A DNA stretch of 64,000 nucleotides from an uncultured Syntrophomonadaceae bacterium (GTDB taxonomy: Bacteria; Bacillota; Dethiobacteria; DTU022): assembly GCA_964627855.1 (NCBI GenBank), contig CAZVLE010000047.1, positions 29,929 to 93,928 on the forward strand. Direction: 5' to 3'. How positions within the stretch are numbered: position 1 is the stretch's first letter; the number at the start of each line of letters is the position of its first letter. A model generated the notes under the pieces. That model did not search any database. It saw only the letters and a list, made by a program, of their open reading frames with translations, and was not told where the DNA came from. The translations under genes were made by a program, and so were the position numbers. Below, piece by piece: positions 8,541-26,487 of this stretch.

Positions 8541-8636
8541 CCCGAAACAGCTTTATCAATCACAAATAATAGTTTAAAATATCTAGTAAGTTTTCCTCAA
8601 GGGCTAGCAAGAATATTGGAAACAGGGTGATAACTG

Positions 8637-9560: not shown

Positions 9561-9775
9561 AAATAGTCAGGATGTTTTTTTATTTATACTACTTGTTTTT
9601 TCTACAACAGCTTCTAAAATATCTAAAAAGCCCAGTTACCAAAAGTACTTGGCGAGATCCTGGAAAATCAATTTACCCCTGATAGCGGTCAGCAGTATCG
9701 ACAATCTTATAGAGTTATTATATTAAATCTAAATGTTTTGGCCCTTATAGCGCTGACAGTAAAGTAGATAGGCCG

Positions 9776-9846
9776 TTGACAAACGATCATCGAAAAGTTA
9801 TAATTTTGCTTAATATTATACATTAGTCCGCATAGTTATATTTTTG
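9776..9846 (+). promoter_or_regulatory. Promoter plus conserved leader/operator module, copy A
   Basis: TTGACA (9776-9781) is separated by 17 nt from TATAAT (9799-9804). This is followed by ATTATACAT-TA-GTCCGCAT-A-GTTATATTTTT, which aligns without gaps to 10541-10611. Confidence 0.5.
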
Positions 9847-9909
9847 GGGGCGATAAGCAAAAATAAATCGCTTTCTCAGTTAATAACAAAACAAAGGAGT
9901 AACAATAAC

Positions 9910-10185
9910 ATGTCATTTATGCTGGATAATGTTAAAAATGCTGTCGTATATGGAAAGGATAAAGAAATAACGCAGCACGTTGAAGAAGCATTAAATAATA
10001 ACATTCCACCCAAAATAATCATTGACGAGGGCTTAATTTCTGGAATGGGTATAATTGGAGCCAGGTTTAAAAATAGAGAGGTCTTCGTGCCGGATATTCT
10101 GATTGCTGCTCGCGCTATGCATTTAGGGATGTCTATTTTAAAGCCCATGATCAATCAAGGCCTTGATGAAAATAGTATGTCATAA
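9910..10185 (+). pseudogene. Truncated corrinoid protein: B12-binding N-terminal cap (helical bundle) domain only
   Basis: ATG 9910 lies after AAAGGAG. The translation ..IIDEGLISGMGIIGARFKNREVFVPDILIAARAMHLGMSILKP.. resembles the cap domain of MtaC/MtbC-type corrinoid proteins but stops (TAA 10183) before the Rossmann/DxHxxG part. The same frame continues with ..PIIGTVNGKYEY.., a possible degenerate remnant. Confidence 0.4.
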
Positions 10186-10540
10186 AAAGGGCTTGTCATC
10201 CAATCTTTGTTTTCTCCTATCATAGGGACAGTAAATGGTAAATATGAATACATTGACAGGGATGACAGCCAGGTAGCAGTGGAGTTAGATGGTATAATGA
10301 AAAAATATTTTAGGCAATAAACGATTATAATGCACCGGTTTATCCGGGGCAGTTGGAATGTTGATAACCAAGCCAGCATTGTCGAAATAATGGCTATGCT
10401 GGCTTTCATAATATAAAAATGCACAGGAAAAGAGCGGGCAAGCTGATTGTCGCTAAGTTCAAAAACAGAGCAATACTTAATAAATCGCAATTCAAGACAG
10501 ATAATTCCCGCTTAAGTGCGTTAGAGATGAAAAAATAACG

Positions 10541-10611
10541 TTGACGAATAAACATAGAAAAGTTATAATTCTCCTATACATTATACATAGGTCCGCATTG
10601 TTATATTTTTT
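10541..10611 (+). promoter_or_regulatory. Promoter plus conserved leader/operator module, copy B (upstream of moaD-like/aor)
   Basis: TTGACG (10541-10546) is separated by 17 nt from TATAAT (10564-10569). This is followed by ATTATACAT-AG-GTCCGCAT-T-GTTATATTTTT. Confidence 0.5.
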
Positions 10612-10746
10612 GTCAGGTTTATGACTATTTATAGCGATAGAGAATGAGCTTGCCGATGTTTAACTGAGGTATTACTCGAAAATATAAACACTTTACAAAT
10701 AATGCAGGGCCAGCTTTTAGATCATCTTTAAAAAGAAGGGTAAGAT

Positions 10747-11022
10747 ATGGCGGTTAAAGTAATATTCTATCCTCCTTATTGCGACTGGCTGGGGTATAAA
10801 TCAGCCGATGTTGAACTGCCTGCCGATCAAGTATCTGTAGAAAAATTTATCGCTCTGCTTCTACACAATTTCCCTCAACTGAACAAAAAATCAATTGCCT
10901 CTAATCAAGGTGATCTAGTGCCTCCCTTGCTAATAATGATCGATAGTAACGCCCTACAAAAAAATGACGCGATAAAAAGTGGCGACGAAATTAAAATACT
11001 CTATCCTCTGTGTGGAGGATAA
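10747..11022 (+). CDS. MoaD/ThiS-family small sulfur-carrier-like protein
   Basis: 91 aa ending in a C-terminal di-glycine (..YPLCGG*). An RBS (GAAGGG) precedes the ATG. It lies immediately upstream of AOR. Confidence 0.7.
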   Translation: MAVKVIFYPPYCDWLGYKSADVELPADQVSVEKFIALLLHNFPQLNKKSIASNQGDLVPPLLIMIDSNALQKNDAIKSGDEIKILYPLCGG

Positions 11023-11072
11023 AATCAGGAGTCTGATTGCTGAAAGTAAAAAGTTTGAGGAGGTAAAATAAA

Positions 11073-12911
11073 GTGAGCGGTTACATGGGTAAAATTTTAA
11101 GGATTGATTTATCAAAAAGAGAAGTGACATACCAAGAATTTGCTGAAGAAACATTGAAGAAATATATCGGAGGAAGTTGTCTGGGGGCAAAGATACTTTT
11201 AGATGAAACAGGGCCTGAAACAGATCCGTTAGGTCCAGATAACATCCTAATTTTTTTAACCGGGCCACTGGTTGGCACACGGGCAATTAATTTTGGCAGG
11301 TATCAGGTTGTTACAAAATCGCCTCTCACCGGCGCCTATGGAGAGGCTAACGCCGGTGGAAGCTGGGGTCCTGAATTAAAAAAAGCCGGTTTTGACGGAA
11401 TAATATTTAAAGGAAAAGCGGATAAACCGGTCTACCTCTGGATTGAGAATGGAAAAGTTGAAATTAATGATGCCTCTTCCCTGTGGGGTAAAGATACTTA
11501 TGAGGTCGACGCTATCTTGAAAGAGCAATTAGGCCCTAATATTGTTACCTGCAGCATAGGGCAGGCCGGCGAGAACCAGGTTAGAATAGCAGCTATTATG
11601 AATGACGGACGCCACGGCAGAACAGCAGCACGCTGTGGGGTTGGAGCTGTAATGGGCTCGAAAAATTTAAAAGCAATTGTGCTTAAAGGAGAACTTGAGG
11701 TTCCCGTTTTTAACCGTGATGAACTTGTCAAGTCGGTTAAAAAGTGGCCTACCTTGATCAGGGAGAGGTTACACGGTCTTGCTGAATATGGGACCTCAAC
11801 AGGGATGATGACTGTAGAAGAAATCGGGGATCTCCCTGTAAAGAACTGGAGTGCTGGTAGATTTGCCGGCGCTGAAAAAATATCCGGTCAGACAATGGCT
11901 AAAACAATCCTGAAAAAGAAATATTTTTGTTCTCAATGTGTTATCGGTTGTGGCAGAACGATCAAGCAAATCAAATCAGAATACGGGGAAATCGCTGAGG
12001 GCGGTGGACCGGAGTATGAAACACTGGGCATGATGGGAGCAAATTGCCTGATCGATGATCTTCATGCAATCGCCAGGGCAAACGAATTATGTAATCGCTA
12101 CGGATTAGATACTATTGCTACTGGAGCAGCAGTATCTTTTGCTATGGAGTGTTATGAAAACGGATTAATAAAAGAAGACCAAACAGGTGGCTTGGCTCTT
12201 GAGTGGGGCTCTACGAAAGCTTTGATTGACTTAATACCAAAAATTGCCTTCAAAGAAGATATTGGAGCAGCATTGAGTGAGGGGACGCGAATTGCTGCAG
12301 AAATCATTGGCCATAATGCTTCTGAATATACCGTTCAGGTAAGAGGTATGGAATTTCCCGCTCATGATCCTAGAGCTAAATTTAGTACTGCTTTGGCTTA
12401 TGCGACCAGCGCACGAGGCGCCTGCCACCTGAGCGCATTTTCTTATGAATTCGAAATGGGCGCTTCAATGCCTGAACTTGGTTATCCAGAAACACTGGAT
12501 CGTTTCACCAATGAAGGGAAAGGGGAACTCGTTGCAAAGTTCCAGGATTTGATGTCACTAATGGACTCTTTAACCGGCTGTAAATTTGTTGTTCTTGGTC
12601 TGGGTGATCAGGCCATTGAAACTATATTGCTGTGGCTCAACCTTGTAACAGGTTGGAATATGTCACAGAGCGAGTTACTTGAATGTGGAGCGAGGGCTGT
12701 GAATCTTAAGCGCTTATATAATGTTAAGTGCGGACAATCCAGAAAAGATGATATTCTTCCGCCAAAAATGATTAGCCAAAAAAGAGGCGAGGGAGGAGCA
12801 GCAGATTCATTGCCCCATCTTGGGGAAATGTTGAGTCAGTATTATGCATATCGAGGCTGGGATGAAACTGGAATACCAACAAAAGAAACATTGAAACAGT
12901 TAGACCTATAA
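11073..12911 (+). CDS. aor: Aldehyde:ferredoxin oxidoreductase (tungstopterin AOR family)
   Basis: 612 aa with the typical N-terminus GKILRIDLSKREV, an FeS motif CSQCVIGCGR and AFOR C-domain features. GTG 11073 lies 9 nt after GAGGAGG; ATG 11085 is the alternative start. Confidence 0.9.
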   Translation: MSGYMGKILRIDLSKREVTYQEFAEETLKKYIGGSCLGAKILLDETGPETDPLGPDNILIFLTGPLVGTRAINFGRYQVVTKSPLTGAYGEANAGGSWGPELKKAGFDGIIFKGKADKPVYLWIENGKVEINDASSLWGKDTYEVDAILKEQLGPNIVTCSIGQAGENQVRIAAIMNDGRHGRTAARCGVGAVMGSKNLKAIVLKGELEVPVFNRDELVKSVKKWPTLIRERLHGLAEYGTSTGMMTVEEIGDLPVKNWSAGRFAGAEKISGQTMAKTILKKKYFCSQCVIGCGRTIKQIKSEYGEIAEGGGPEYETLGMMGANCLIDDLHAIARANELCNRYGLDTIATGAAVSFAMECYENGLIKEDQTGGLALEWGSTKALIDLIPKIAFKEDIGAALSEGTRIAAEIIGHNASEYTVQVRGMEFPAHDPRAKFSTALAYATSARGACHLSAFSYEFEMGASMPELGYPETLDRFTNEGKGELVAKFQDLMSLMDSLTGCKFVVLGLGDQAIETILLWLNLVTGWNMSQSELLECGARAVNLKRLYNVKCGQSRKDDILPPKMISQKRGEGGAADSLPHLGEMLSQYYAYRGWDETGIPTKETLKQLDL

Positions 12912-12943
12912 GTGCCCATTTTTCATTCGTCTGGAGGCTATAA

Positions 12944-13966
12944 GTGAAAGCTTTAATAAAAAAAACAACTGAAGAAAAACTACACCTGGAAGAATTGCCT
13001 GAGCCAAAGGTTGGCCCGGGTCAGGTAAAAATCGAGGTTAAATTTGCAGGTATTTGTGGCACCGATTACCACATTCTCCATAATGAATACATGCATAACT
13101 TGCCTTTAGTTCCCGGCCATGAATTTTCTGGAATTATTTGTGAAACCGGCCTTGATGTAATTAACTACCAGGTAAATGACAGGGTTGTTGCGCTTACAAC
13201 ATACTACACCTGTGGTGTTTGTGAGTATTGTATTTCCGGTGTAAAAATGTTATGCAAGGAACGTCAATCCTTTGGGACCCATGTGAACGGAGCATTTGCT
13301 AAATACATTGTCTTAGATCAAAATCTGCTTTTTAAAATTCCTGACAATGTTAGTTTTGAAGAGGCGGTGCTGACAGAACCACTTGCATGCTGTGTTCGTG
13401 GTTTAATTGAAATGTCAAGAATACGCTCAACTGACTTTGTTCTTGTTTCAGGTCCGGGTACGATTGGACTTCTGGCTCAACAAATTGCCCAGATTGAAGG
13501 CGGCACTGTGCTTGTCTGTGGTTCTGATAAAGATTCCGACAGGTTAAACAAGGCAAAAGAATTAGGCGCTTATCAGACAATTAATGCTACTGATGATCTA
13601 TTTGCAACAGTGATGGAATTGACAGGAGGTGAAGGAGTTGATGTAGCTATTGAGTGCGCCGGAGTAGAAATATCGGCACAAAACTGTATAAAACTTCTTA
13701 AACCAGGGGGCAGCTATCACCAGATGGGTTTATTTGGCAAGCCTGTTAAATTCGATCTAGATGCATTGCTGCGTAAGGAAGCTATTTTAACAACTTCCTA
13801 TGCATCGACATATTCTTCTTTTAAAAAATCTCTCAGGCTGATGTCTTTAAACAAGGTCAGTATCAAACCGTTAATATCTGAAATTTTACCGATGACCAGC
13901 TGGGAAGAGGGGTTTCAAATTTTTGCAGATAAATCCGGTTATAAGGTGCTGCTTTACCCTATTTAA
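12944..13966 (+). CDS. Zn-dependent medium-chain alcohol/polyol dehydrogenase
   Basis: Motifs GICGTDYH and PGHEFSG, the structural-Zn Cys cluster CGVCEYCISGVKMLC, and a GxGxxG-like site (SGPGTIG). The GTG start follows GGAGG. Confidence 0.85.
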   Translation: MKALIKKTTEEKLHLEELPEPKVGPGQVKIEVKFAGICGTDYHILHNEYMHNLPLVPGHEFSGIICETGLDVINYQVNDRVVALTTYYTCGVCEYCISGVKMLCKERQSFGTHVNGAFAKYIVLDQNLLFKIPDNVSFEEAVLTEPLACCVRGLIEMSRIRSTDFVLVSGPGTIGLLAQQIAQIEGGTVLVCGSDKDSDRLNKAKELGAYQTINATDDLFATVMELTGGEGVDVAIECAGVEISAQNCIKLLKPGGSYHQMGLFGKPVKFDLDALLRKEAILTTSYASTYSSFKKSLRLMSLNKVSIKPLISEILPMTSWEEGFQIFADKSGYKVLLYPI

Positions 13967-14002
13967 CAAGCCTTACTTTACAGCATGATCCTGAACAGTT
14001 AA

Positions 14003-15022
14003 TTGAATGGCGGTGATGTGAGTATGAAAGATAATAATAACTTTAATAATAATGGTCCACTCCAGATCTTAAAGGGCATAGTTAACAAAAGAGAGTTTGG
14101 CATTTTTATACCGCTCGTAATTATTTTTATTGGTTCGGGCCTGGTTAATCCCCTTTTCTTCGGAACACAAAATATCACAAACATTTTTTTCCAAGCCTCT
14201 TTTATTTTCATCATCGGTGTTGCCATGACCTTTGTTTTGATATCTGCCGGCCTTGATCTTTCAGTGGGCTCTGTTTTAGGGCTGGGTGGAGTGATTGCCG
14301 GTCTCGCGTTACTGGCAGGACTGCCAATTTGGCTCAGCGTGATCATTGGGCTTCTTCTCGGTGTAGCTGTTGGCTTGTTTAACGGCTTTTTTATAGCCTT
14401 TTTTAAGATGCCTACTTTAATAGTTACTCTGGCAATGATGTATATAGCCAGAGGTATTTGTGAATATCTGACACGAGGCACGCCAGTATATCCTCTCCCG
14501 CTTGCTTTCAATCAAATTGGCCAGGGCAGACTGGCCTTAACAGCCGACTTTGGAATTCCATGGCCAATTATTATCGCTATTGTAGTTGGAATAATCGGTC
14601 ATGTCATCCTGGTCAAAACTGCATTTGGCCGGTCTGTTTTTGCCATCGGCGGCAACCTGGAAACAGCCAGATTGTCGGGGATAAATGTGAGAAAAGTTAC
14701 AATAATCATCTATGTTTTTAGTGCGGTCATGGCTTCCCTGGCCGGTGTAACAACTGCTGCAAGACTGGGTTCGGCTCTGTCAAATGCCGGCATGGGTATG
14801 GAACTCAATGTTATTGCTGCGGTTATTATCGGTGGAACATCAATGTTCGGTGGTGTTGGTTCGGTCCTGGGGACTGCTATTGGCGCATTGTTAATGACTA
14901 CAGTTACCAATGCCATGGCTATGCTGGCTATTTCAGTATTTCTACAAAAAGTAATTATCGGGGCAATTATTCTGTTGGCCGTGGGTATAGATTTGTATAA
15001 CCGGAAAAGAAGCGGTATTTAA
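14003..15022 (+). CDS. Sugar ABC transporter permease (CUT2 / RbsC-like)
   Basis: A polytopic hydrophobic protein with the typical RbsC-type pattern (..GLDLSVGS.., ..GGTSMFGG..). The start is TTG 14003 or ATG 14024. Confidence 0.88.
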   Translation: MNGGDVSMKDNNNFNNNGPLQILKGIVNKREFGIFIPLVIIFIGSGLVNPLFFGTQNITNIFFQASFIFIIGVAMTFVLISAGLDLSVGSVLGLGGVIAGLALLAGLPIWLSVIIGLLLGVAVGLFNGFFIAFFKMPTLIVTLAMMYIARGICEYLTRGTPVYPLPLAFNQIGQGRLALTADFGIPWPIIIAIVVGIIGHVILVKTAFGRSVFAIGGNLETARLSGINVRKVTIIIYVFSAVMASLAGVTTAARLGSALSNAGMGMELNVIAAVIIGGTSMFGGVGSVLGTAIGALLMTTVTNAMAMLAISVFLQKVIIGAIILLAVGIDLYNRKRSGI

Positions 15023-15028
15023 GCTTAT

Positions 15029-16603
15029 TTGCTTGATGGTGGTATGCAGATTATAAGGCAAGGTGAGGTATCAAATATTGTGACTGAGAAAAAAGTGCTT
15101 GAAATGAAGCATATTACTAAGAAGTTTTATGCCCTGACCGCTTTAAGTGATGTCAGTATTGATCTATATGAAGGGGAAGTTCTGGGAATTGTCGGAGAAA
15201 ACGGGGCCGGTAAATCGACTTTGATGAAGATACTTTCGGGTAGCTATCCAGCCAACTCATATGATGGTGAAGTAATCGTAAACGGCGAAACACAGCGTTT
15301 CTTTATAACCGCTGATGCTGAAAAGGCCGGCATAGAGATGATCTATCAGGAAATCAGCCTCATGAATGATTTGTCGGTTGCAGAAAATATTTTGCTCGGG
15401 CGTTTGCCGCAAAGCAGAATAAAAGGTTTTATTGACTGGGGTAAAGTTAACCAGGAAGCCAGAGAAGCCCTCTCTTACGTCGGACTTGAACTGGATATTA
15501 ACGAGATGGTACGTAAACTATCGACAAGCCAGATGCAGCTTCTGTCTATAGCCAAGGCTTTATATAGAAAACCAAAAATATTAGTTCTTGATGAACCCAC
15601 TTCTGCATTGACGGAGAGTGAGACTCACAGGTTAATGGAAATTATAGAAAGCATAAAGAAACAGGGTATTTCCTGTATTTATATTTCGCATAAACTTGAT
15701 GAAGTATTTAATTTGACCGATAGAATTATTGTTTTACGTGATGGCAATGTTATCTCAACCTATGAAAAACGTGACATCGTTCCGGATAAAGTAATTGAAG
15801 ATATGGTAGGACGAAAAGTGGAGAATAGGTACCCAAAAGTACATGTGAGTTTAGGGGAAGAGATTTTTCGGGTAGACAATTTAACCGTCCCTTCAAATGT
15901 CATTGAGAAAAATAGAATTGAGAATGTTTCTTTCATGGTCCGGAGCGGAGAGATACTCGGCCTGGGAGGATTGGTTGGTTCAGGAAGAAGTGAGCTGGTC
16001 AATGCTTTATTTGGAGGGATTAGAAAAACTTCCGGCGATATCTATATCGACAGTGAATTAGTTCAAATTGAAAAACCAGCCGATGCTATTGAGCATAGAA
16101 TCGGTTTATTGACTGAAGATAGAAGGGCATCCGGTTTTGTTGGTACCATGAATATCAGGGAAAATATTTCATTGGCCAGCCTCGAAAAAATCAGCAGTAA
16201 GGGATTTCTCAACAAAAAAGAAGAGGTCAGACTTACAGGAGAACAGTTTACTGCATTAAGAGTAAAAGCACCCGGGTTGGAAACCAGCATTCTGAACCTT
16301 TCAGGAGGTAATCAGCAAAAAGTTGTACTGGGTAAATGGTTAATGAGTGATGTCAGGATTCTTTTCCTAGATGAGCCAACCCGTGGGATCGATGTTGGAA
16401 CAAAGGTTGAACTCTACAACATAATGTTTAAACTGGCACAAAAAGGGGTTGCTATCGTCATGATTTCATCAGAACTGCCTGAGCTTATGGCTGTCTGCGA
16501 CAGGTTTATCGTCCTCTGCGAAGGTAGAGTAACCGGCCATTTTGAACACGAAGATATTACAGAAGAGCTTTTCATCAAGGCAGCTACGAATTATTTATGC
16601 TGA
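15029..16603 (+). CDS. Sugar ABC transporter ATP-binding protein, duplicated ABC domains (RbsA/MglA-like)
   Basis: Walker A GENGAGKST, a second degenerate P-loop GLVGSGRSE, the signature LSGGNQQK and Walker B ILFLDEPT. The start is uncertain (15029, 15044 or GTG 15080). Confidence 0.9.
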   Translation: MLDGGMQIIRQGEVSNIVTEKKVLEMKHITKKFYALTALSDVSIDLYEGEVLGIVGENGAGKSTLMKILSGSYPANSYDGEVIVNGETQRFFITADAEKAGIEMIYQEISLMNDLSVAENILLGRLPQSRIKGFIDWGKVNQEAREALSYVGLELDINEMVRKLSTSQMQLLSIAKALYRKPKILVLDEPTSALTESETHRLMEIIESIKKQGISCIYISHKLDEVFNLTDRIIVLRDGNVISTYEKRDIVPDKVIEDMVGRKVENRYPKVHVSLGEEIFRVDNLTVPSNVIEKNRIENVSFMVRSGEILGLGGLVGSGRSELVNALFGGIRKTSGDIYIDSELVQIEKPADAIEHRIGLLTEDRRASGFVGTMNIRENISLASLEKISSKGFLNKKEEVRLTGEQFTALRVKAPGLETSILNLSGGNQQKVVLGKWLMSDVRILFLDEPTRGIDVGTKVELYNIMFKLAQKGVAIVMISSELPELMAVCDRFIVLCEGRVTGHFEHEDITEELFIKAATNYLC

Positions 16604-16745
16604 AGTATTTTGTAAGAAAGTAATAATGCTAAGAAAATATGATGATCTTTTCTAAAACTGAAGAATCTATTGAAATTATTAGAGTGGATTACTGGAGTCT
16701 CTGTGCTCCTTAATCAAATATAAAACCTTTAGGAGGGTAATTTAA

Positions 16746-17762
16746 ATGAAGAAGTGGTTGATTATTGCGGTCCTGTTGCTTTCTGTAGCGCTTATCTTTT
16801 CTGCCTGCGCGACAGATAGCGGACCCGACCCCGATCCGGTGGAGCCCGAGACTGATGTTGATGTTGATGAAGGTGCCGTTGGAGAAGAAGAAATGATTGA
16901 ATTGACCTTTGTAACACCCCTGGTTGCTCACCCCGTATGGGATGTTGCCAGGGAAGGCTTTGAAGATGCCGCTCGTGATTTAAACTTCAAAGCTAATTAT
17001 GTTGGGCCACAGGGTATTGATCCGGCAGAGATGGTAAATCAAATTGAAATTGCTCTTGCTTCACAGGTCGATGGCATTATTACAATGCCTATTGCCCCGG
17101 AGGCAATGAGACCTGCATTTCAAAAGCTCGAAGAAGCCGGTATGCCTGTAGTATTTGTTGGTGCAGAAGATGACGAATCTACTGCGCTGGCTTTTATTGG
17201 CACAAACGAAGCAGAACTGGGCAGGCAGGGTGCGGAAGGCCTAATGGCCAAAATGGATGGAGAGCCCATAAAGGCCTATATCCAGCAGTCAACCATGGAT
17301 GCTTCCTTTGCCAACAATGCAAGAGATGGTTACTTAGCTGCGCTGGAAGACTATCCGGGTGGATTTGAATTGATTCTGAATGAACCAAACAACTCGGATA
17401 TGATGATTGCTATGGAAAGGTTACAGAATGCTTTTAATACCTATCCGGAGCTTAATGTTGTTATCGGAGTTGCCGGCGAAGTAGGTCCTGCTGCAGCCAA
17501 GGTCGTTAAAGAAATGGCTATTGAAGATCGCATTACAATCATTGCCATTGATGATGTTGCCGAAACCATGGACTTCGTCAAAGAGGGCGTAATCTATGGT
17601 ACCATGGCCCAAAATTTCTATATGATGGGTTACATGGGGGCACAGTTCCTGGTGGATTACATCAGGGAAGGTAAAGAACCTGAAAACTTCAAAAATGATT
17701 CCGGTAGTATTTTCGTAACCCTTGAGAACTTTGATACCTATGAAGAAACCTTAAAGAGGTAG
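16746..17762 (+). CDS. Periplasmic-type sugar-binding lipoprotein (ABC substrate-binding protein, PBP type I)
   Basis: A signal peptide with lipobox LIFSAC is followed by an acidic Pro/Asp linker and a ribose/galactose-binding-protein-like body. The RBS is TAGGAGGG. Confidence 0.85.
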   Translation: MKKWLIIAVLLLSVALIFSACATDSGPDPDPVEPETDVDVDEGAVGEEEMIELTFVTPLVAHPVWDVAREGFEDAARDLNFKANYVGPQGIDPAEMVNQIEIALASQVDGIITMPIAPEAMRPAFQKLEEAGMPVVFVGAEDDESTALAFIGTNEAELGRQGAEGLMAKMDGEPIKAYIQQSTMDASFANNARDGYLAALEDYPGGFELILNEPNNSDMMIAMERLQNAFNTYPELNVVIGVAGEVGPAAAKVVKEMAIEDRITIIAIDDVAETMDFVKEGVIYGTMAQNFYMMGYMGAQFLVDYIREGKEPENFKNDSGSIFVTLENFDTYEETLKR

Positions 17763-17831
17763 ATTGGCTAATTTCCTTCAGAGGTTTGTAGTAATCAGCT
17801 TTTAAAGGGTTATTAGTTGAAGACAGGGAGT

Positions 17832-17864
17832 GGTGATGCAGGCATTTCAAATGTTTGCATCACC
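17832..17864 (+). terminator. Stem-loop after the SBP gene (possible terminator or processing site)
   Basis: GGTGATGCA (17832-17840) pairs with TGCATCACC (17856-17864). The downstream tract is only moderately T-rich. Confidence 0.35.
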
Positions 17865-17925
17865 ATACTAATTCTCTCTGTATGTCGTATGCAATTGATT
17901 AAAATATCAACTGACAGGTGATCTT

Positions 17926-18993
17926 ATGGATTACTCATCCGCTAGAAACCATGGCTGCAGAATCACAGAATACAAACATCGGGGTCTGACCATCCTGACT
18001 ATGGAAAATGATCTTCTTAAAATATCGATCCTTGTTGATCGCGGTTCCGATATTATAGAACTGGCTTATAAACCTCTAGATCTTGATTTCATGTGGAAAG
18101 CACCCGGAGGTATAAGGCCGGCGGGTAGTTTTATTCCGACCAGTGCAAGCTCGCTCGGCAACTACCTTGATTATCTTTCTGGAGGCTGGCAGGAAATCTT
18201 ACCGGGTGGGGGACCTTTTCTTGCTTATGGAGCTGAAATCGGGCTCCATGGTGAAGTTTGTTTATTACCGTGGAGTTTTAGTATCGAGGAAGATACAGCG
18301 GAAAAGGTTTCTTTACGCTTAAACTGCAAAACGGTCAGGTTCCCATTTAGGTTGACAAAAATCATAACATTACAGCGTGGAAGTACCGTTGTAAATCTTG
18401 AAGAAAAACTTATTAATGAAAGCGACGAGAGCATTGAATTTTTATGGTCTCATCACCCGGCCTATGGGAAGCCGTTTTTGGATGGAAACTGCCGCATTGA
18501 TGTTCCGGCGAAAACTTTTCACACCAGTAATTTTTATAACTCACCTACAGCACTTTTTAATCCCGAACATCAGGGTAAATGGCCTTTAGATAAAGATAAA
18601 AATGAAATATTGGTTGACCTGAGTTTGGTGCCACCTCTTTCGGAACCAGTTTCTGATTTATATTATTTAAAAGACCTGGCCGAAGGATGGTATGCGATAA
18701 CAAATATAGATAAACAAATAGGGATAGGTTTTTCATGGGACCTGTCTGTTTTTCCATATTTAACTTACTGGCAGGTTTGTAATGGTAGTTATGGTTACCC
18801 CTGGTATGGGCGCACGTATAACATAGGTTTAGAATTATGGAACAGTTTTACTGATAAACTGGAAACGGCAAGAAATAATCAAACACTGCAAAGTATTGCT
18901 GGTGGTCAAACTATAAGTACAGAGATAAAGGTGATTATTTATTCTGACTTAGAGAAGGTTAACCGCATCTTACCAAATGGAGAAGTTTTATAA
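17926..18993 (+). CDS. Galactose-mutarotase-fold (aldose 1-epimerase-like / DUF4432-like) protein, paralog 1
   Basis: 355 aa containing GLHGE, an epimerase-like beta-sandwich pattern and WSHHP. It shares roughly half its residues with the next ORF. Confidence 0.6.
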   Translation: MDYSSARNHGCRITEYKHRGLTILTMENDLLKISILVDRGSDIIELAYKPLDLDFMWKAPGGIRPAGSFIPTSASSLGNYLDYLSGGWQEILPGGGPFLAYGAEIGLHGEVCLLPWSFSIEEDTAEKVSLRLNCKTVRFPFRLTKIITLQRGSTVVNLEEKLINESDESIEFLWSHHPAYGKPFLDGNCRIDVPAKTFHTSNFYNSPTALFNPEHQGKWPLDKDKNEILVDLSLVPPLSEPVSDLYYLKDLAEGWYAITNIDKQIGIGFSWDLSVFPYLTYWQVCNGSYGYPWYGRTYNIGLELWNSFTDKLETARNNQTLQSIAGGQTISTEIKVIIYSDLEKVNRILPNGEVL

Positions 18994-19029
18994 AAAGTTA
19001 TAATCCTAGACAAGGTGGGGGTACTTTAA

Positions 19030-20100
19030 ATGGATTACTCTTCGGAACGAAATCACGGCTGTAGAATCCTCGAATACACTCACAGGGGATTGACCATGGT
19101 ATCCATGGAGAACGAAATCTTAAAGATTTCGGTTCTTGCCGATAAAGGTGCTGATATAGTCGAGCTGGTACACAAACCTTCAGATATTGACTTCATGTGG
19201 AAAGCACCGGGAGGTATACGGGAAACGGCAAAACATATTCCCACCATTGCCAGTTCTCTGGGGAATAACCTCGATTATTATGAAGGGGGATGGCACGAAT
19301 CTTTACCCTGTGCCGCACCCTGTATAAATTCTGGAGCAGAACTGGGGTTGCATGGCGAAGTGGCATTGTTACCCTGGAGCTTTCATGTTGAGAGAGACGA
19401 TGTAGATCTAATATCCGTGATTTTTTCCTGTAGAACAGTCCGGTTTCCATTTCATGTCCAAAAACGTATAGTTGTAGAGAGTAATAATCCGGTAGTTTCT
19501 ATAGATGAAAGCCTGACAAATGAAAGCAGCGAAGTTATTGACTTTATGTGGGGTCAACATCCAACATTTGGAAAGCCATTTCTTGACAGCACTTGTCGCA
19601 TAGATATTCCGGCAAGCGAATTTACTGTCTGCAATAATTTTTTATCACCGACTTCTTATTTTCAGCCCGGCTATAAGGGAAAATGGCCTTTGACTGTTTC
19701 CCGTTCAGGAAAAGAAATTGATCTCAGTCGATTTCCTCCTGAGGCAGAAAAGTCCGCAGAGCTGCTTTACTTGAAGGGGCTAAATGAAGGCTGGTTTGCC
19801 ATCACCAATACTGGTCTCCGCCTGGGTATTGGAATCAGGTGGGATATCAATATCTTTCCGTATGTTTGGTACTGGAGAGTGTTGAGAGGGTTGCCTGGTT
19901 ATCCGTGGTATAGCCGTACATATAATATTGGCCTGGAACCTTGGAGCAGTTATCCGTCTGACTATGATCTGGCAAAACAAGGTGGAGCTCTAATAAAAAT
20001 TAATGGCAATGAGAGGATTGACACATCTTTTAAAGTTGTCCTTTATAGCGGCGTTGAAAAGGTGAAGAGAATAACTGAACAGGGTATGATCGAATCATAA
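19030..20100 (+). CDS. Galactose-mutarotase-fold (aldose 1-epimerase-like / DUF4432-like) protein, paralog 2
   Basis: 356 aa. It has the same N-terminus (MDYSSxRNHGCRIxEYxHRGLT) and the same motifs (FMWKAPGGIR, GLHGEV, RTYNIGLE) as 17926-18993. Confidence 0.6.
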   Translation: MDYSSERNHGCRILEYTHRGLTMVSMENEILKISVLADKGADIVELVHKPSDIDFMWKAPGGIRETAKHIPTIASSLGNNLDYYEGGWHESLPCAAPCINSGAELGLHGEVALLPWSFHVERDDVDLISVIFSCRTVRFPFHVQKRIVVESNNPVVSIDESLTNESSEVIDFMWGQHPTFGKPFLDSTCRIDIPASEFTVCNNFLSPTSYFQPGYKGKWPLTVSRSGKEIDLSRFPPEAEKSAELLYLKGLNEGWFAITNTGLRLGIGIRWDINIFPYVWYWRVLRGLPGYPWYSRTYNIGLEPWSSYPSDYDLAKQGGALIKINGNERIDTSFKVVLYSGVEKVKRITEQGMIES

Positions 20101-20131
20101 AACTTAAATAAAGTGAAGGAAGTGATAAACC

Positions 20132-21169
20132 GTGAACTCCCTTGAAAGAAGCCTTGCTGTAATAGCTCATAAAAAAGCGGACAGGGTACCTGTGATTCCC
20201 CAGGATGCACATGTGGCCGCTAAGCTCGCTGGTTATGATCATTTTGAGTTTGCCAAAGATCCCAAAAAGATTGCCAGTGCCCAGATCGAATGTTGTGAAA
20301 GATTCGGATTTGATGGCATTATCATGGGCGCTGATACGGTAGTTTTAGCTGAAGCGGTGGGTGTTGAAGTGAGGTATTCCAAAGATATCGGGCCCTCTCC
20401 AGTGGCAGGATGTCTTGATTCGTATAAAGATATTAAAAAACTAAAAGCACTTAATCCCCTTAAAGATGCCCGGTTGCCGGTATGGGTTGAAGCTACCCGG
20501 CTTCTGGTGGAAAAAGTTGGCCATGAAAAGCTAATTGTTGCCCGTGCTGATCAGGGCGCATTCAGTCTTGCCTCAATGATTCGCGGTTTTGAAAACTTTT
20601 TCATGGATCTAACCGTTGGTGAAGAAAAGGAAGCCGTTCATGAATTACTCAGGTATTGCAATGAGTGTATGTATACTTTTATTAAAGCCTTAAAATCGGT
20701 TGGAGCTCATGTAGTAACGACCGGAGATTCTATATCAGGACCAGAGGTAGTATCACCGGCTTTTTATGAAGAGTATTCATTCCCTTATGAAGTGGATATG
20801 GCAAATAGATGCAAAAAGCTGGGAATACCCTTTGCCATCCATATTTGTGGAAAAACAGATCAAATCCTGGAAAAATGGATTCAGACCGAAGCAGAAATTT
20901 TTGAGATTGATCATAAAACTGACTTTGCACTGGCGAGAAATTTGACAGTTGGAAAAGTTACACTGCTTGGTAATCTCGACTGCTCTGGAGTGATGCTAAG
21001 TGGAGCACCGGAGCTGGTTGAGCAGAAATCGAAGGAAATAATTGATATTTGTATGCCCCACAGTGGATTGATTTTGAGCTCGGGATGCTTGCTGGGAAGC
21101 AATACGCCCCCTGAAAATATGCAAGCCCTGGCTGATAGCGCCAGAAAATATGGTGTGTTTCCCGATTAA
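20132..21169 (+). CDS. URO-D superfamily protein, MtaA/CmuA-like (corrinoid-dependent methyltransferase type)
   Basis: 345 aa with the N-terminus ..KKADRVPVIPQ.. and an HxCG motif (AIHICGKT) typical of Zn methylcobamide methyltransferases rather than HemE. A later Cys occurs in SSGCLLG. The start is GTG after GAAGGAAG. Confidence 0.7.
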   Translation: MNSLERSLAVIAHKKADRVPVIPQDAHVAAKLAGYDHFEFAKDPKKIASAQIECCERFGFDGIIMGADTVVLAEAVGVEVRYSKDIGPSPVAGCLDSYKDIKKLKALNPLKDARLPVWVEATRLLVEKVGHEKLIVARADQGAFSLASMIRGFENFFMDLTVGEEKEAVHELLRYCNECMYTFIKALKSVGAHVVTTGDSISGPEVVSPAFYEEYSFPYEVDMANRCKKLGIPFAIHICGKTDQILEKWIQTEAEIFEIDHKTDFALARNLTVGKVTLLGNLDCSGVMLSGAPELVEQKSKEIIDICMPHSGLILSSGCLLGSNTPPENMQALADSARKYGVFPD

Positions 21170-21210
21170 AAAGCATTATATTATTATTAACTATAACTGG
21201 GAGTGTTATC

Positions 21211-22377
21211 ATGGAAAACTTTACATTTCACAATCCGACCAAAATCATTTTCGGAAAAGATACCGAAAATACAGTAGGCAGCGAGATTAAGCCTTACAGC
21301 GATTCAGTTTTGCTTGTTCATTCCGGAGGTGAACATTTAAAAAAGAACGGAGTATATGACAGGGTAATTGCTTCACTTGGTAATTCCGGCATAACCATAA
21401 AAGAACTTAGCGGTATCAAGCCAAATCCCCTGCTCGAGCCAGTTTATGAAGGGATAGAGCTATGTCGCAAGAATTGTCTAGATTTTGTTCTAGCCCTTGG
21501 TGGGGGTAGCGTGATCGACACTGCTAAAGCAATTGCGGCAGGTGTTCCCTATGATGGCGATGTTTGGGATTTATTTACCGGTAAAAACAGCTTTGGAGAA
21601 GCTCTTCCAACGGGAACAATTGTTACAATTCCGGCAGCAGGCAGTGAAAGTAGTAATGGTTCAGTAATAACCAATGAGAAAAGCGGTTACAAATTGGCAA
21701 TTATTGATGAAGTATTAAGACCTAAATTTGCCATATTAAATCCGGAACTTACCTTCAGCTTGCCGGCTTATCAGACTTTTTGCGGTGTTGCAGATATCAT
21801 GTCACACGTCATGGAACGCTATTTCACAAAGGTCAAGCACGTTGATTTATCTGACCGCCTATGTGAAGCTGTGCTGAGAACTGTTATCAGGAACGCTCGA
21901 ATATTATTAAAAGATCCTGCTGACTATCATGCCCGTTCAGAAATTATGTGGGCATCTACAATTGCACATAACGATCTTCTTACAGCCGGGCGGATCGGCG
22001 ACTGGGGATCTCATATGATCGGGATGGAGATCAGCGCATTATACGACAGTACACATGGTGCAACTTTGTCTGCGGTTACTGCATCCTGGATGCGTTATGT
22101 ATATAGCGAAGATTTGAACAGGTTTGTTCAATTTGCGATGCGTGTCTGGAACGCAGAGTACGATTTTGACGACCCTGTCAGGACAGCATTAGAGGGAATA
22201 AATAGTATGGAAAGTTTTTTCAAAGAAATTGGACTACCAACAAGCCTGGCTGAACTTGGTGTTGATGATCAAAGGTTGCAGGAGATGTCACAAAAGTGCA
22301 CCGAAAGAGGGAATGTAGGTGCGATAAAAAGTCTTTGTCAGGATGATATTTTTAATATTATGAAAATGGCCCTCTAA
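21211..22377 (+). CDS. Iron-containing (group III) alcohol dehydrogenase, YqhD/butanol-dehydrogenase-like
   Basis: 388 aa with the N-terminus FTFHNPTKIIFG, the motif GGGSVIDTAKAIA and conserved His residues (HVMERY, THGATL). Confidence 0.88.
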   Translation: MENFTFHNPTKIIFGKDTENTVGSEIKPYSDSVLLVHSGGEHLKKNGVYDRVIASLGNSGITIKELSGIKPNPLLEPVYEGIELCRKNCLDFVLALGGGSVIDTAKAIAAGVPYDGDVWDLFTGKNSFGEALPTGTIVTIPAAGSESSNGSVITNEKSGYKLAIIDEVLRPKFAILNPELTFSLPAYQTFCGVADIMSHVMERYFTKVKHVDLSDRLCEAVLRTVIRNARILLKDPADYHARSEIMWASTIAHNDLLTAGRIGDWGSHMIGMEISALYDSTHGATLSAVTASWMRYVYSEDLNRFVQFAMRVWNAEYDFDDPVRTALEGINSMESFFKEIGLPTSLAELGVDDQRLQEMSQKCTERGNVGAIKSLCQDDIFNIMKMAL

Positions 22378-22402
22378 GACCTGCAGTCATAGTTATTATC
22401 AG

Positions 22403-23299
22403 TTGCAATTTGCCAAAGGTCTGGTCATGTTGCTAAAAAAGTATTATCACTTGACATGGGGAGTGATGGAATTGTTACAGAAGGACGTTGCCGCCAGTAG
22501 CTTAAGAGACGCTAAGGTTGCAATAAAAACACCAACCCTGAAATCAGTAGAAAAAGCTTTTGATGTTTTGGCATGTTACACACACGACACTCCCGATTTC
22601 AGCATGAATGAATTAGCCCAAAAACTGGGAGTCAGTAAAGGCAGTATTCACCGGATCCTGATAACCGCACAAAAAAAAGGCTTTATTGAAAAAAATGATC
22701 AAACTAAAAGATATCAACTTGGCACGAAGCTTTTTGAATTGGGCAGTATAGTGATGTCGCGTACGAACTTAAGTACTGAATCTCTACCTTTTCTACGTAA
22801 TCTAACTTCTAAAACTGGAGAGACGTCTTATGTAATTATAAGAGACCAGGATGAAGCACTGTGTATTCAATCTGTTGAAGGGCACAATTACCTGCGGGTT
22901 TTATTTTTGGAAGTCGGCAAAAAAATGCCGCTTTATATCGGAGCCGGACCAAAGATAATCCTCTCTAACTTGGATGATACGGAGATAGCAGAATGGTTCA
23001 ACAGAAATCCAAACAGGGTTAAATGGACTGAACACACAGTAACCGATCAGGAATTAATATGGCAGGACATCATGAGAATAAGAAAAAGAGGTTACGCTGA
23101 AAGTATAGAAGATGTGACTGATGGAGTAACCTCAGTAGGAGCTCCGATCAGGGATGCCCAGGGCAAGGTTATCGCTGCTGTTAGCATTGGAGGGGCCAGC
23201 ATTAATTTTTCTGATAACAAGATCGAAAATCGGGTAAAAATGGTAATAGATACCGGCCTGCAAATTTCAAAAAGAATGGGCTTCAGCGGTAAAATTTAA
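22403..23299 (+). CDS. IclR-family transcriptional regulator
   Basis: An N-terminal wHTH (LKSVEKAFDVL...MNELAQKLGVSKGSIHRIL) plus an IclR effector domain. The true start is probably internal (ATG 22427 or 22466). Confidence 0.85.
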   Translation: MQFAKGLVMLLKKYYHLTWGVMELLQKDVAASSLRDAKVAIKTPTLKSVEKAFDVLACYTHDTPDFSMNELAQKLGVSKGSIHRILITAQKKGFIEKNDQTKRYQLGTKLFELGSIVMSRTNLSTESLPFLRNLTSKTGETSYVIIRDQDEALCIQSVEGHNYLRVLFLEVGKKMPLYIGAGPKIILSNLDDTEIAEWFNRNPNRVKWTEHTVTDQELIWQDIMRIRKRGYAESIEDVTDGVTSVGAPIRDAQGKVIAAVSIGGASINFSDNKIENRVKMVIDTGLQISKRMGFSGKI

Positions 23300-23346
23300 T
23301 TTCAATAAATTAATGCGCTTATTATTGCCATTAGGAGGTTTTTTAG

Positions 23347-24426
23347 ATGGAACCAGCTGTGTTTAAAAGTCCGCTGCATCAAATGACCGAAACAATGCTT
23401 ACAGACTTTTGGAATGACTCGTGCTCAATTGATGAGCTTAATTATGCCATAAATTACGGGGCGACAGGTGCAACAACAAATCCGGTTATAGTCGGAAATG
23501 TTCTCAAGGAAGAACGTGAACAATATGAAGACCGCATCATCGAAATGATCAATGCTTTCCCGAAAGCAACTGAAGATGAGTTAACCTGGAAACTGAATGA
23601 AGAAATGGCCGTTGCCGGAGCAAAATTGCTGAGGCCGGTTTATGAAGCCACTAATGGTAAAAAAGGGCGACTGTCAATACAAACTAATTCTAAATACTAC
23701 CGCAACTGGGAAAAGCTTTATGAGCAGGCGTTGCATTTCTACACACTGACGCCAAATATTCAGGTTAAAATGCCTGTAACTAAGGCTGGAATAAAGGCTA
23801 TTGAAGAAGCCACATATCATGGAGTGAGTATTAATGCAACAGTTAGTTTCAGTGTGCCTCAGGCACTGGCAGTGGCAGGAGCAGTTGAAAGAGCCCTGGA
23901 ACGACGAAAGGCGGAAAATAAGGATATTGAGAAGATGTCCCCGGTCTGCACAATCATGCTCGGCAGAATAGACGACTGGCTCAAAGATGTTGTTAAACGT
24001 GATGGTATCGAAATTAACCCGGAATACCTGGAGTGGCCCGGTGTGGCAATTATGAAAAAGGCATACGGCTTATTTCAGGAACATGGATACAGGACCCGTC
24101 TTTTAGCCGCGGCTTACCGTAATAGCTATCAGTGGACAGAGCTGATGGGTGGCGATATTGTATTGACCATGCCACATGCCTGGATTAAAAAATTCAACGA
24201 ATCAGCAGTCACTGTAGAACCTAAAATCGATACACCTGTTGATAGCAAGATTATTGACACCCTAAAAAGCCTGATTCCGGAGTTTGTCAAGAGCTATGAA
24301 CCGGAGGGAATGCAGCCGGATGAGTTTGACAGTTTTGGTGCTGTCAATAAAACATTGCGTCAGTTTCTTGCCGGATACGATGAGCTTGTCAATATGATCC
24401 GTGACTATATGGTTGTCGTTAAGTAA
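23347..24426 (+). CDS. Transaldolase-family protein (long, about 359 aa form)
   Basis: GATGATTNPVIV and a candidate Schiff-base Lys in NIQVKMPVT, consistent with the TIM-barrel aldolase class I family. The RBS is TAGGAGG. Confidence 0.8.
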   Translation: MEPAVFKSPLHQMTETMLTDFWNDSCSIDELNYAINYGATGATTNPVIVGNVLKEEREQYEDRIIEMINAFPKATEDELTWKLNEEMAVAGAKLLRPVYEATNGKKGRLSIQTNSKYYRNWEKLYEQALHFYTLTPNIQVKMPVTKAGIKAIEEATYHGVSINATVSFSVPQALAVAGAVERALERRKAENKDIEKMSPVCTIMLGRIDDWLKDVVKRDGIEINPEYLEWPGVAIMKKAYGLFQEHGYRTRLLAAAYRNSYQWTELMGGDIVLTMPHAWIKKFNESAVTVEPKIDTPVDSKIIDTLKSLIPEFVKSYEPEGMQPDEFDSFGAVNKTLRQFLAGYDELVNMIRDYMVVVK

Positions 24427-26272: not shown

Positions 26273-26487
26273 CCTTGTAGTATAGGGTTTTCTTAAAATG
26301 TTTACGAACTTAGATGATAGATTACAATATCAAAGTAATTTTGTCAAGCAAGTGGAAGCCTTTTTAGTGATTAGATTATTGCTATGGTCCTTGACAAAAA
26401 GAGATTGCTCATTCAGAATATAAATATAATTCCGTTTTTCTTGTTTCATGCCAGAAAAATGTCATTAAAGATCAGATATGCTTCCAA

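Follow-up and report, generated by a model that had tools for sequence, protein, structure and literature searches.

A predicted sugar-catabolic operon combining a tungsten-type aldehyde oxidoreductase with a transaldolase-family enzyme in an uncultured Syntrophomonadaceae bacterium

What would a bacterium do with an aldehyde:ferredoxin oxidoreductase (AOR), a sugar transporter and a transaldolase-family enzyme encoded in one series of genes? The question is raised by a 64,000-nucleotide stretch of DNA from an uncultured Syntrophomonadaceae bacterium (assembly GCA_964627855.1, contig CAZVLE010000047.1, positions 29,929 to 93,928; hereafter the window), in which twelve genes follow one another on the plus strand from 10747 to 24426. 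They encode a MoaD-like small protein, the AOR, a zinc-dependent dehydrogenase (Zn-ADH), the permease, ATPase and lipoprotein substrate-binding protein (SBP) of an ATP-binding cassette (ABC) transporter of the CUT2 type, two DUF4432 paralogs, an MtaA-like enzyme of the URO-D superfamily, an iron-dependent alcohol dehydrogenase (Fe-ADH), an IclR-family regulator and a TAL/FSA-superfamily protein, called here the TAL-like enzyme. A preliminary description of the sequence had reported co-directional genes with short gaps behind a promoter at 10541. Both statements were borne out: the series is unbroken, with intergenic gaps of 6-163 nt in the list of open reading frames (ORFs), and 11 of the 12 promoter positions agree with the sigma-70 consensus. 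The family assignments of the genes likewise all held in Pfam and NCBIfam profile searches. When all genes were scored, every protein of the array fell below the NCBIfam equivalog cut-offs, and nothing relevant was found in the literature on DUF4432, on URO-D proteins in sugar loci, or on transaldolases with AOR or with inositol intermediates. As first proposed, no described pathway matches this gene set.

Our answer, given tentatively, is that the genes form a single, jointly regulated operon for the breakdown of a monosaccharide-like substrate, predicted to combine transaldolase-type cleavage with aldehyde disposal. Splitting a sugar and disposing of the free aldehyde is probably the purpose of the array. 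We infer most steps of the following route. The sugar would be taken up by the CUT2 ABC system, and its anomers would be interconverted by the DUF4432 pair. A 2-ketose would be formed by the MtaA-like zinc enzyme or, from the corresponding polyol, by the Zn-ADH. The TAL-like enzyme would then transfer the C1-C3 dihydroxyacetone unit to glyceraldehyde-3-phosphate, yielding fructose-6-phosphate, and the rest of the ketose would be freed as an aldehyde. Depending on the redox state, this aldehyde would be oxidised to the acid by the tungsten AOR with ferredoxin or reduced to the alcohol by the Fe-ADH. The IclR protein would probably control the genes through a conserved operator, and a kinase of the ROK family encoded just upstream may offer an alternative or additional phosphorylating entry.

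Promoter, gene modules and the case for one operon

The promoter of the array is one of two copies of a 72-nt element on the plus strand. The copy that precedes moaD and the AOR gene, and hence the array down to the TAL gene (10539-10610), has the hexamers TTGACG and TATAAT spaced by 17 nt and, behind them, a box ATTATAC-N4-GTCCGCAT. The other copy (9774-9845) has TTGACA-17-TATAAT, matching at 12 of 12 positions, followed by the same box, and the two elements are 82% identical. The array promoter itself (10541-10569) is among the two best sigma-70 matches in 18 kb. The box occurs twice in the window and nowhere else there; chance alone would give 0.06 occurrences. A relative (L089) also has this promoter and box upstream of its orthologous operon, before the Zn-ADH gene, so that the box is common to two loci whose proteins are 67-91% identical. 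In all three cases the core box TATAC-N4-GTCCGCAT lies just 3' of the -10 hexamer (9817-9833 and 10582-10598 in the window, 4900-4916 in L089). It is a candidate operator, possibly bound by the IclR protein (22403-23299, plus strand, by Pfam and NCBIfam), whose start may be at 22427; gene callers in L001 give 290 amino acids. Since promoter and box are duplicated in the window and also present upstream of the L089 operon, it is the promoter of the sugar operon itself that immediately precedes moaD and the AOR gene. No convincing plus-strand terminator was seen inside the array. The 170-nt leader was considered as the site of a riboswitch, for Moco/Tuco or another ligand, and this was rejected; Rfam gave only the T-box leader of leuA and a tRNA gene in the window.

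The unit extends further upstream. An open frame at 8634-9560 (plus strand) encodes a fructokinase-like kinase of the ROK family (269 bits with the ScrK model, cut-off 400). It is 52% identical to the ROK protein encoded directly before the Zn-ADH, ABC and DUF4432 genes in L089, to which it is syntenic. Therefore, the earlier statement that there is no sugar kinase is correct inside 10541-24426 but not just upstream. Relatives of the locus cleave their substrate by DERA or through ketohexokinase (Khk) with a class-I aldolase (DeoC/LacD), and the window keeps the ROK gene, so the route may be partly phosphorylative. For the same reason, the proposal that a non-phosphorylated sugar is cleaved is insecure for this organism in that one word, whereas the idea of transaldolase cleavage followed by aldehyde disposal gained from the recurrence of the AOR/TAL pairing in three other loci (L177, L060 and L155).

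Relatives carry the genes of the array as modules. In a sister taxon (L175, 88-95% identity), the genes for the second DUF4432 paralog, the MtaA-like enzyme, Fe-ADH, IclR and the TAL-like enzyme and leuA stand in the same order over the part that its contig covers. Co-conservation was thus found for the downstream half in this taxon, but beyond it the 13.7-kb array breaks up into separate modules. L089 contains ROK, Zn-ADH, permease, ATPase, SBP and two DUF4432 genes, with ROK followed directly by Zn-ADH and no MoaD or AOR gene. L087 and L088 (58-74%) contain DERA, permease, ATPase, SBP, the DUF4432 pair, MtaA-like and Fe-ADH genes, and L009 (46-60%) contains SBP, the DUF4432 pair, MtaA-like, Fe-ADH, a two-component system and Khk. 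The fullest version of the conserved module lies on a 33.8-kb contig of JGI 3300072015 (the P0282 locus), in the order ABC transporter with two SBPs, DUF4432 pair, MtaA-like, Fe-ADH, two-component system, GntR, Khk (PF25270), bacterial microcompartment (BMC) shell protein and DeoC/LacD aldolase. These four loci have the transporter, the DUF4432 pair, the MtaA-like enzyme and Fe-ADH but no AOR, IclR or TAL gene. The module of CUT2 transporter, DUF4432 pair, MtaA-like enzyme and Fe-ADH is present in at least four lineages (46-74% identity). Conservation of the whole array as one unit was rejected on the contents of L089, L087, L009 and the P0282 locus, of 80 DUF4432 loci from reference genomes and of 35 metagenomic TAL-like loci of at least 6 kb, in which DUF4432 or URO-D neighbours were found in none and AOR in one. 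For the 80 DUF4432 loci, one tally gave URO-D in 3, Fe-ADH in 2, AOR in 2 and TAL in 1. The array is a lineage-specific mosaic of modules that are also found separately.

As for the AOR and the TAL-like enzyme, a tight operon of Firmicute type (L177, TAL-like proteins 71% identical) encodes LacI, DUF4432, SBP, ATPase, two permeases, a FucI-like isomerase, AOR, a ThiS-like protein and a TAL-like enzyme. It holds all that the mechanism of the preliminary description needs, namely a transporter, a mutarotase-like protein, an isomerase, a TAL-like enzyme and an AOR, and has no kinase. In a member of the Chloroflexia (L060, TAL-like 59%), DUF4432, ABC, AOR and TAL-like genes stand together with no confirmed MoaD-like gene, and in L155 the AOR gene is divergently adjacent to the TAL-like gene.

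Could the array be a row of independent units that happen to be co-oriented, that is, a moaD-AOR unit for aldehyde detoxification or acid reduction, a sugar module and a housekeeping transaldolase regulated by IclR? We consider this unlikely. Such units would agree with the absence of AOR from L089 and of TAL and IclR from L087, L009 and the P0282 locus, and with the 35 TAL-like loci devoid of DUF4432 and URO-D neighbours. They would also agree with the broad-specificity clade of the AOR, with the position of a regulator gene between Fe-ADH and TAL, and with the conservation of the TAL-like subfamily, which at 55-72% identity across orders resembles that of central-metabolism enzymes. However, moaD-AOR lies between the conserved promoter/operator and the first ancestral gene, 32 nt from Zn-ADH and with no terminator, which points to functional recruitment rather than accident. 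The recurrence of AOR and TAL with DUF4432 and CUT2 genes in L177 and L060, and of AOR beside TAL in L155, would be unlikely for unrelated genes. In addition, relatives whose operons lack TAL carry another C-C lyase in them, either DERA (L087 and L090, by equivalog score) or the DeoC/LacD aldolase with Khk (P0282 locus).

The TAL-like enzyme and aldehyde disposal

The TAL-like protein of 359 amino acids (23347-24426, plus strand) scores 150.9 bits with TAL_FSA (PF00923; cut-off 27) and so belongs to the superfamily. It was compared with TalB, and the motifs aligned as expected. The Schiff-base lysine K141 aligns with TalB K132 and is invariant in 30 homologs, and N45, T165 and the anion-binding R207 and R258 are also kept. 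Gln112, an invariant residue of the subfamily, takes the place of TalB Glu96, and Met204 that of TalB Phe178. With these two replacements and a best NCBIfam score of 121 bits (cut-off 367), the protein is not a classical TalB-type transaldolase (EC 2.2.1.2). It is not an FSA either: the Gln is present, but Met204 stands in place of Tyr, the length is 359 rather than about 220 amino acids, and TIGR00875 gives 50.7 bits against a cut-off of 246. Among solved structures the best match is a long-form transaldolase (3r5e, 66 bits), compared with 29 bits for BmSF-TAL (8bc3/8bc4). The protein belongs to a distinct subfamily and is predicted to catalyse a C-C cleaving, C3-transferring step.

This subfamily is large, and its commonest neighbours are inositol genes. 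In L105, an operon at 9094-16017 encodes LacI, IolB, the TAL-like enzyme, IolD, IolG, an IolE-like protein and IolG, with IolB, IolD and IolG passing equivalog cut-offs. In Anoxynatronum (L176, 6098-13032), the TAL-like gene lies between IolE-like and IolB-like genes, which are followed by CoA transferase genes. Further TAL-like loci in iol operons are L113, L115, L118, L121, L134, L140, L147 and L167-L170. A census of 100 ORFs from 12 iol-type TAL loci counted IolD (10), TAL (9), GFO (8), IolE-like (8), IolB (7) and aldehyde dehydrogenase (ALDH; 5), and PfkB, class-II aldolase and DUF2090 were not among the families with at least two members there. IolC, IolJ and DUF2090 are absent or rare in TAL-carrying iol operons. 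In these operons the TAL-like enzyme would replace IolC and IolJ: it would take the dihydroxyacetone unit from 5-dehydro-2-deoxy-D-gluconate, pass it to an acceptor and set free malonic semialdehyde. Because those other families are absent or rare, this would be a third and undescribed solution for the step; GapMind has only IolJ and DUF2090 for it, and no description of a TAL-type step on 5-dehydro-2-deoxy-D-gluconate was found in the literature. The TAL-like enzyme is paired in iol operons with an aldehyde consumer, either an IolA-type ALDH or CoA transferases, which fits a role in releasing a free aldehyde.

It is conceivable that the enzyme of the window also acts on 5-dehydro-2-deoxy-D-gluconate, or on a close keto-deoxy acid, to give malonic semialdehyde, and that the upstream module makes this acid from an imported deoxy-uronate or cyclitol-derived compound. 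The window protein is 69% identical to the iol-embedded protein of L176. In a neighbour-joining tree it groups with L175, then with the AOR-linked L177 and the iol-linked L176. The anion-binding arginines are kept, and several neighbours of distant DUF4432 genes (GFO/IDH/MocA proteins, xylose-isomerase-like TIM barrels and thiamine diphosphate (ThDP) enzymes) form cyclitol-type contexts. The arginines, however, are required for the phosphorylated acceptor anyway and hence do not discriminate between donors, and the transaldolase activity on 5-dehydro-2-deoxy-D-gluconate is itself a prediction. The window has no homolog of IolB, IolD, IolE, IolG or IolA: when iol-like proteins representing the TAL loci were used as tblastn queries, the 64 kb gave no match at E <=1e-3. 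Neither iol genes nor DERA, Khk, FucI-like isomerase or DUF362 genes were found elsewhere in the window. We regard an inositol-type acid as the substrate here as highly improbable. Since AOR-linked and iol-linked proteins share a clade, the same type of TAL enzyme is used in different operons, and in both its iol and its AOR contexts it neighbours an aldehyde-consuming enzyme.

The aldehyde released in the route that we favour would meet two enzymes of broad aldehyde-handling types. One is the AOR (11073-12911, plus strand; AFOR_N and AFOR_C), which resembles characterised AORs (477 bits for the bacterial enzyme 9mqx, 453 for 1aor of Pyrococcus furiosus) more closely than FOR (324 bits) or WOR5 (253 bits). 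Its Cys-x2-Cys-x3-Cys motif and the distal Cys of the [4Fe-4S] cluster align. The sequence places it in the canonical, broad-specificity tungsten-type clade and does not decide between tungsten and molybdenum. The MoaD-like protein encoded before it (10747-11022, plus strand; Pfam ThiS, TIGR01687 below cut-off) is probably an accessory for the supply of the AOR cofactor, and a ThiS-like gene flanks the AOR gene in L177 too. The other is the Fe-ADH (21211-22377, plus strand), assigned by Pfam, NCBIfam and sequence scores to the BdhA/YqhD aldehyde-reductase type (350 bits to 7w9x, 325 to butanol dehydrogenase A and 249 to YqhD). Its gene adjoins a DUF4432 or MtaA-like gene in L008, L009, L087, L090, L092 and the P0282 locus. 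The Zn-ADH (12944-13966, plus strand; Pfam and NCBIfam) is a medium-chain dehydrogenase of the polyol/threonine-dehydrogenase type, so the initial count of three aldehyde/alcohol redox enzymes was an overstatement. Members of its JGI cluster are named L-iditol 2-dehydrogenase, and it is 69% identical to the product of the first gene of the L089 operon.

Sugar import, DUF4432 and the MtaA-like zinc enzyme

The importer consists of the permease (14003-15022; BPD_transp_2), the ATPase with a double ABC_tran domain (15029-16603) and the SBP (16746-17762; Peripla_BP_4), all on the plus strand and assigned by Pfam and NCBIfam. The signal peptide of the SBP ends in a lipobox-like FSAC. The three proteins are 79%, 81% and 91% identical, respectively, to their L089 counterparts.

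The DUF4432 paralogs (17926-18993 and 19030-20100, plus strand) are 54% identical to each other and score 67 and 72 bits with PF14486 (cut-off 32.5); the family has more than 1,300 homologs across many phyla. An AlphaFold model (pLDDT 91.4) has the galactose-mutarotase beta-sandwich fold. The top match in the PDB is the uncharacterised 3TY1 (TM-score 0.76), followed by GalM of Bacillus subtilis and of Lactococcus lactis. All 31 family members compared share His108, His177 and Glu303, which by residue numbering may correspond to GalM His96, His170 and Glu304. Close DUF4432 homologs are nearly always encoded beside a CUT2 transporter. Their neighbours also include enzymes whose target is an aldehyde or hemiacetal carbon. 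L008, L090 and L092 have Fe-ADH in this position, L094 has an ALDH (with ABC and DUF4432 genes), and L091 has a short-chain dehydrogenase/reductase (SDR) with a lactonase (before ABC and DUF4432 genes). Given the fold and these ever-present neighbours that act on C1 of aldoses, the proteins are most simply read as mutarotases. Around distant DUF4432 genes (about 40% identity), the 80 reference-genome loci contain SDR (25), GFO/IDH/MocA (15), Zn-ADH (12), xylose-isomerase-like TIM barrels (8) and URO-D-like proteins (at least 7) most often, and ThDP enzymes are also among the neighbours. The SDR, GFO/IDH/MocA and Zn-ADH neighbours again suit a mutarotase.

The URO-D-like call of the preliminary description was right for the superfamily (226 bits with URO-D) and could be refined to the MtaA branch with zinc ligands instead of the HemE branch. 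The protein (20132-21169, plus strand) matches MtaA/CmuA models best, although TIGR01463 gives 165.6 bits, below the family cut-off of 235.4. With TIGR01464 it reaches 90.4 bits against a cut-off of 303, and its structural match to HemE is weaker than that to MtaA; thus it is not HemE. The HxC...C zinc ligands of MtaA (in LHICG and PGC) have their counterparts in H237-x-C239 and C319 (in IHICG and SSGC), which are invariant in 32 homologs. In the structural model (pLDDT 95), which Foldseek superposes on MtaA 4ay7 with TM-scores of 0.89-0.91 and a root-mean-square deviation of 2.1 A, the protein has the MtaA fold with its zinc ligands. In L177, a FucI-like isomerase gene fills the slot held elsewhere by the MtaA-like gene, the product of which we propose for ketose formation.

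An MtaA fold also invites a different explanation, in which the operon serves an O-methylated sugar or cyclitol. The MtaA-like protein would then be a true methyltransferase with its corrinoid protein encoded elsewhere, the demethylated sugar would proceed through the ROK kinase, and the TAL-like enzyme, AOR and the dehydrogenases would be peripheral. The conservation of the fold and of all three zinc-ligand positions across the subfamily suits this explanation. So does L007, where two URO-D-like proteins are the only enzymes beside the transporter and DUF4432, as expected of a simple de-modification to an ordinary sugar. The best NCBIfam match of the window's SBP, a weak one, is a binding protein for rhizopine, a methylated inosamine. 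Moreover, the remains of a corrinoid-protein gene (9910-10320, plus strand) lie 350 nt upstream, behind promoter copy 1, the duplicate of the operon's promoter/operator. Its B12-binding_2 cap is intact up to a stop codon at 10183-10185, and degenerate Rossmann remains that have lost the cobalt-ligand motif follow in frame. NCBIfam corrinoid-protein models match the cap ORF (9910-10185, 91 amino acids) only over their positions 1 to about 83. The protein P0363 of a related strain continues past this stop codon but ends at 136 amino acids, with GTVNGKYEYIDRDD replacing the cobalt-ligand motif. The nearest relatives of the remnant are at most 52% identical. The cap ORF was considered as a functional stand-alone protein and rejected: in the related strain the frame runs on into degenerate sequence, and close relatives of full length are lacking. 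The gene is a decaying pseudogene.

That the local corrinoid gene is a pseudogene both here and in the related strain speaks against demethylation. Furthermore, the called genes within 10 kb in L087, L009, L007 and the P0282 and P0264 loci, and the larger ORFs scanned in L007 and L009, included neither a B12-binding protein nor an activase or a second methyltransferase. In Chloroflexota and Acidobacteriota, members of the subfamily are encoded beside sugar transporters without corrinoid genes. The score below the MtaA/CmuA cut-off points in the same direction. We think it unlikely that demethylation is the function of the locus. A doubtful possibility is that two things hold jointly: the MtaA-like protein would be a corrinoid-independent sugar isomerase or epimerase, or an ether-cleaving enzyme, and the Gln-type TAL would be a general free-aldehyde-releasing transaldolase for non-phosphorylated or acidic ketoses, including 5-dehydro-2-deoxy-gluconate in place of IolC/IolJ, that passes its product to AOR, ALDH or ADH.

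Several observations weigh against a single operon with the route proposed here. The URO-D/MtaA family is not known to include an isomerase, and its Cys2His zinc site is of a kind usual in alkyl transfer rather than in sugar isomerisation. Neither iol nor AOR neighbours are present in 21 of the 35 TAL-like loci, and an attempt to split AOR-linked from iol-linked TAL proteins by phylogeny failed, the two being intermixed by taxonomy. Since the subfamily groups by taxonomy and not by context and most of those loci have neither neighbour, the TAL-like enzyme could be a general transaldolase. The window's AOR shares only 36-38% identity with those of L177, L060 and L155. The link between AOR and TAL is therefore analogous rather than orthologous, and the association was assembled more than once. 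Because L089 lacks AOR/MoaD, and L087, L009 and the P0282 locus lack TAL/IclR, these pairs are not essential to the core module. Finally, the ROK frame has no ATG, GTG or TTG where the L089 ortholog starts (the candidates are CTG at 8634, ATT at 8637 and ATA at 8655), and either a non-canonical start is used or the start codon has been lost.

Comparison with known systems and genomic surroundings

In its logic the locus is closest to transaldolase-dependent sulfoglycolysis (sulfo-TAL), to the L-fucose/L-rhamnose operons and to anhydroglycolysis, and it is a member of none of them. The sulfo-TAL pathway comprises SftA, G, I, T, D/R, X and E (Frommeyer et al. 2020, PMC7491151). As in that pathway, an aldose would be imported here and turned into a ketose, a TAL-family enzyme would transfer a C3 unit to glyceraldehyde-3-phosphate at no cost of ATP, and a C3 aldehyde would be oxidised or reduced, with a mutarotase-type protein associated. 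The preliminary description had remarked on this likeness and on the absence of the hallmark genes, and both remarks agree with our results: no SftI, GH31 sulfoquinovosidase, DUF4867 or TauE exporter was present in the Pfam results for the ORFs at 7850-28543, the part of the window scanned by family. The window differs further in its long TAL form with Gln for Glu96, in its CUT2 ABC importer where sulfo-TAL has one of the major facilitator superfamily, and in aldehyde oxidation by a ferredoxin-dependent AOR where sulfo-TAL uses an NAD-dependent ALDH.

The locus could nevertheless be imagined as a route for sulfoquinovose or another 6-deoxy or 6-sulfo hexose with a divergent sulfo-TAL. (Sulfo)lactaldehyde would then be oxidised to sulfolactate or lactate by the AOR, or reduced to 2,3-dihydroxypropane-1-sulfonate (DHPS) or propanediol by the Fe-ADH. 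The order of isomerase, transaldolase and aldehyde dehydrogenase or reductase would be that of sulfo-TAL (PMC7491151). Several metagenomes from JGI and Logan contain identical proteins. One sample bears the label MLSed, and the sample names suggest, as far as a name allows, soda-lake sediment, where cyanobacterial sulfolipid would abound. In relatives, the neighbours of DUF4432 and Fe-ADH include a BMC shell protein and glycyl-radical enzymes with scores on models of DHPS-dehydratase and propanediol/glycerol-dehydratase type, and weak DUF4867-like proteins occur near L177. On the other hand, the scores of those glycyl-radical enzymes are far under the cut-offs for DHPS enzymes, the TAL-like protein is not of the SftT type, being closer to long-form transaldolase than to BmSF-TAL as given above, and the cluster lacks the isomerase, glycosidase, DUF4867 and exporter genes just named. 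A sulfo- or 6-deoxyhexose route is thus very unlikely in our estimation.

The L-fucose and L-rhamnose operons (FucP, U, I, K, A and O with AldA) are textbook examples with which the locus can be matched role by role: transporter, mutarotase, ketose formation, kinase, C-C cleavage, Fe-ADH reductase and aldehyde oxidation. The BMC shell protein or glycyl-radical enzymes of relatives also recall propanediol-forming pathways. However, only the Fe-ADH is homologous; the other roles would be taken in the window by DUF4432, the MtaA-like enzyme, the TAL-like enzyme (DERA or DeoC/LacD in relatives) and AOR.

Anhydroglycolysis employs the YbiW/PflD glycyl-radical isomerases, FsaA/FsaB and GldA (review PMC13450708). 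The window would share with it an anaerobic setting, cleavage of an unusual ketose by a TAL/FSA-family enzyme and reduction of a small carbonyl product by an Fe-ADH-family enzyme. Among relatives, glycyl-radical enzymes accompany DUF362, DUF4432 and Fe-ADH in L008, L090 and L092. They are PflD-like in L090 and L092, and L090 adds DERA and PFK. Such triplets beside PflD-like enzymes and their activases are located at L090:770-13456, at L092:8777-16490 and in L093. These loci may encode a radical-dependent route for deoxy- or anhydro-sugars that is related to anhydroglycolysis. In contrast, the window cluster has no PFL-like or radical-SAM gene, and its TAL-like enzyme has Met, not the Tyr of FSA, at the Phe178 position.

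With the MtaA-type methanol/methylamine:coenzyme M systems and O-demethylases, the locus shares a fold (TM-score 0.9), the positions of the HxC...C zinc ligands and a corrinoid remnant nearby. The difference is that no functional corrinoid protein, activase or partner methyltransferase was found here or among the scanned genes of relatives, and that the window gene, with its score below the family cut-off, is embedded in a sugar-transport operon. The myo-inositol pathway proceeds through IolG, E, D, B, C, J and A and has a DUF2090 variant (Price et al. 2022, PMC9007349); it resembles our case in that the TAL-like subfamily is often encoded inside iol operons and differs in that the window has no iol genes.

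If the operon reading is right, this would be the first physiological context for DUF4432, a family without literature, and a context for a conserved MtaA-like subfamily that apparently works without a corrinoid partner. It would extend the principle of using a transaldolase instead of a kinase and aldolase, known from sulfoglycolysis with a related role in anhydroglycolysis, to ordinary sugars and probably to inositol breakdown. It would also be a rare bacterial case of a tungsten AOR wired into a sugar operon, with sugar cleavage coupled to ferredoxin reduction. Should the corrinoid-independent function of the MtaA-like enzyme be real as well, its chemistry would be one not known in the URO-D/MtaA superfamily, serving ATP-sparing anaerobic sugar routes.

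As for the surroundings, the block is bordered on the left by lexA (minus strand, ending at 8563) and on the right by leuA (24436-25980, minus strand), which has its own T-box leader (26044-26279, minus strand; 125 bits in Rfam). For individual proteins, the nearest relatives from named organisms belong to Firmicutes that live anaerobically and are often alkaliphilic, among them Anoxynatronum, Anaerovirgula and Petroclostridium. Just past leuA lies an ORF of the phage-integrase family (26488-27393). L001 and L175 have it at the corresponding place, and a recent insertion in this strain can therefore be discounted. A tRNA gene was detected by Rfam at 31486-31556 (plus strand), and an FtsK/SpoIIIE-like gene is located at 44642-46960 (minus strand). 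The cumulative GC skew is maximal at about 28000-32000, where the genes turn from mostly plus to mostly minus strand, and this region may be that of the replication terminus.

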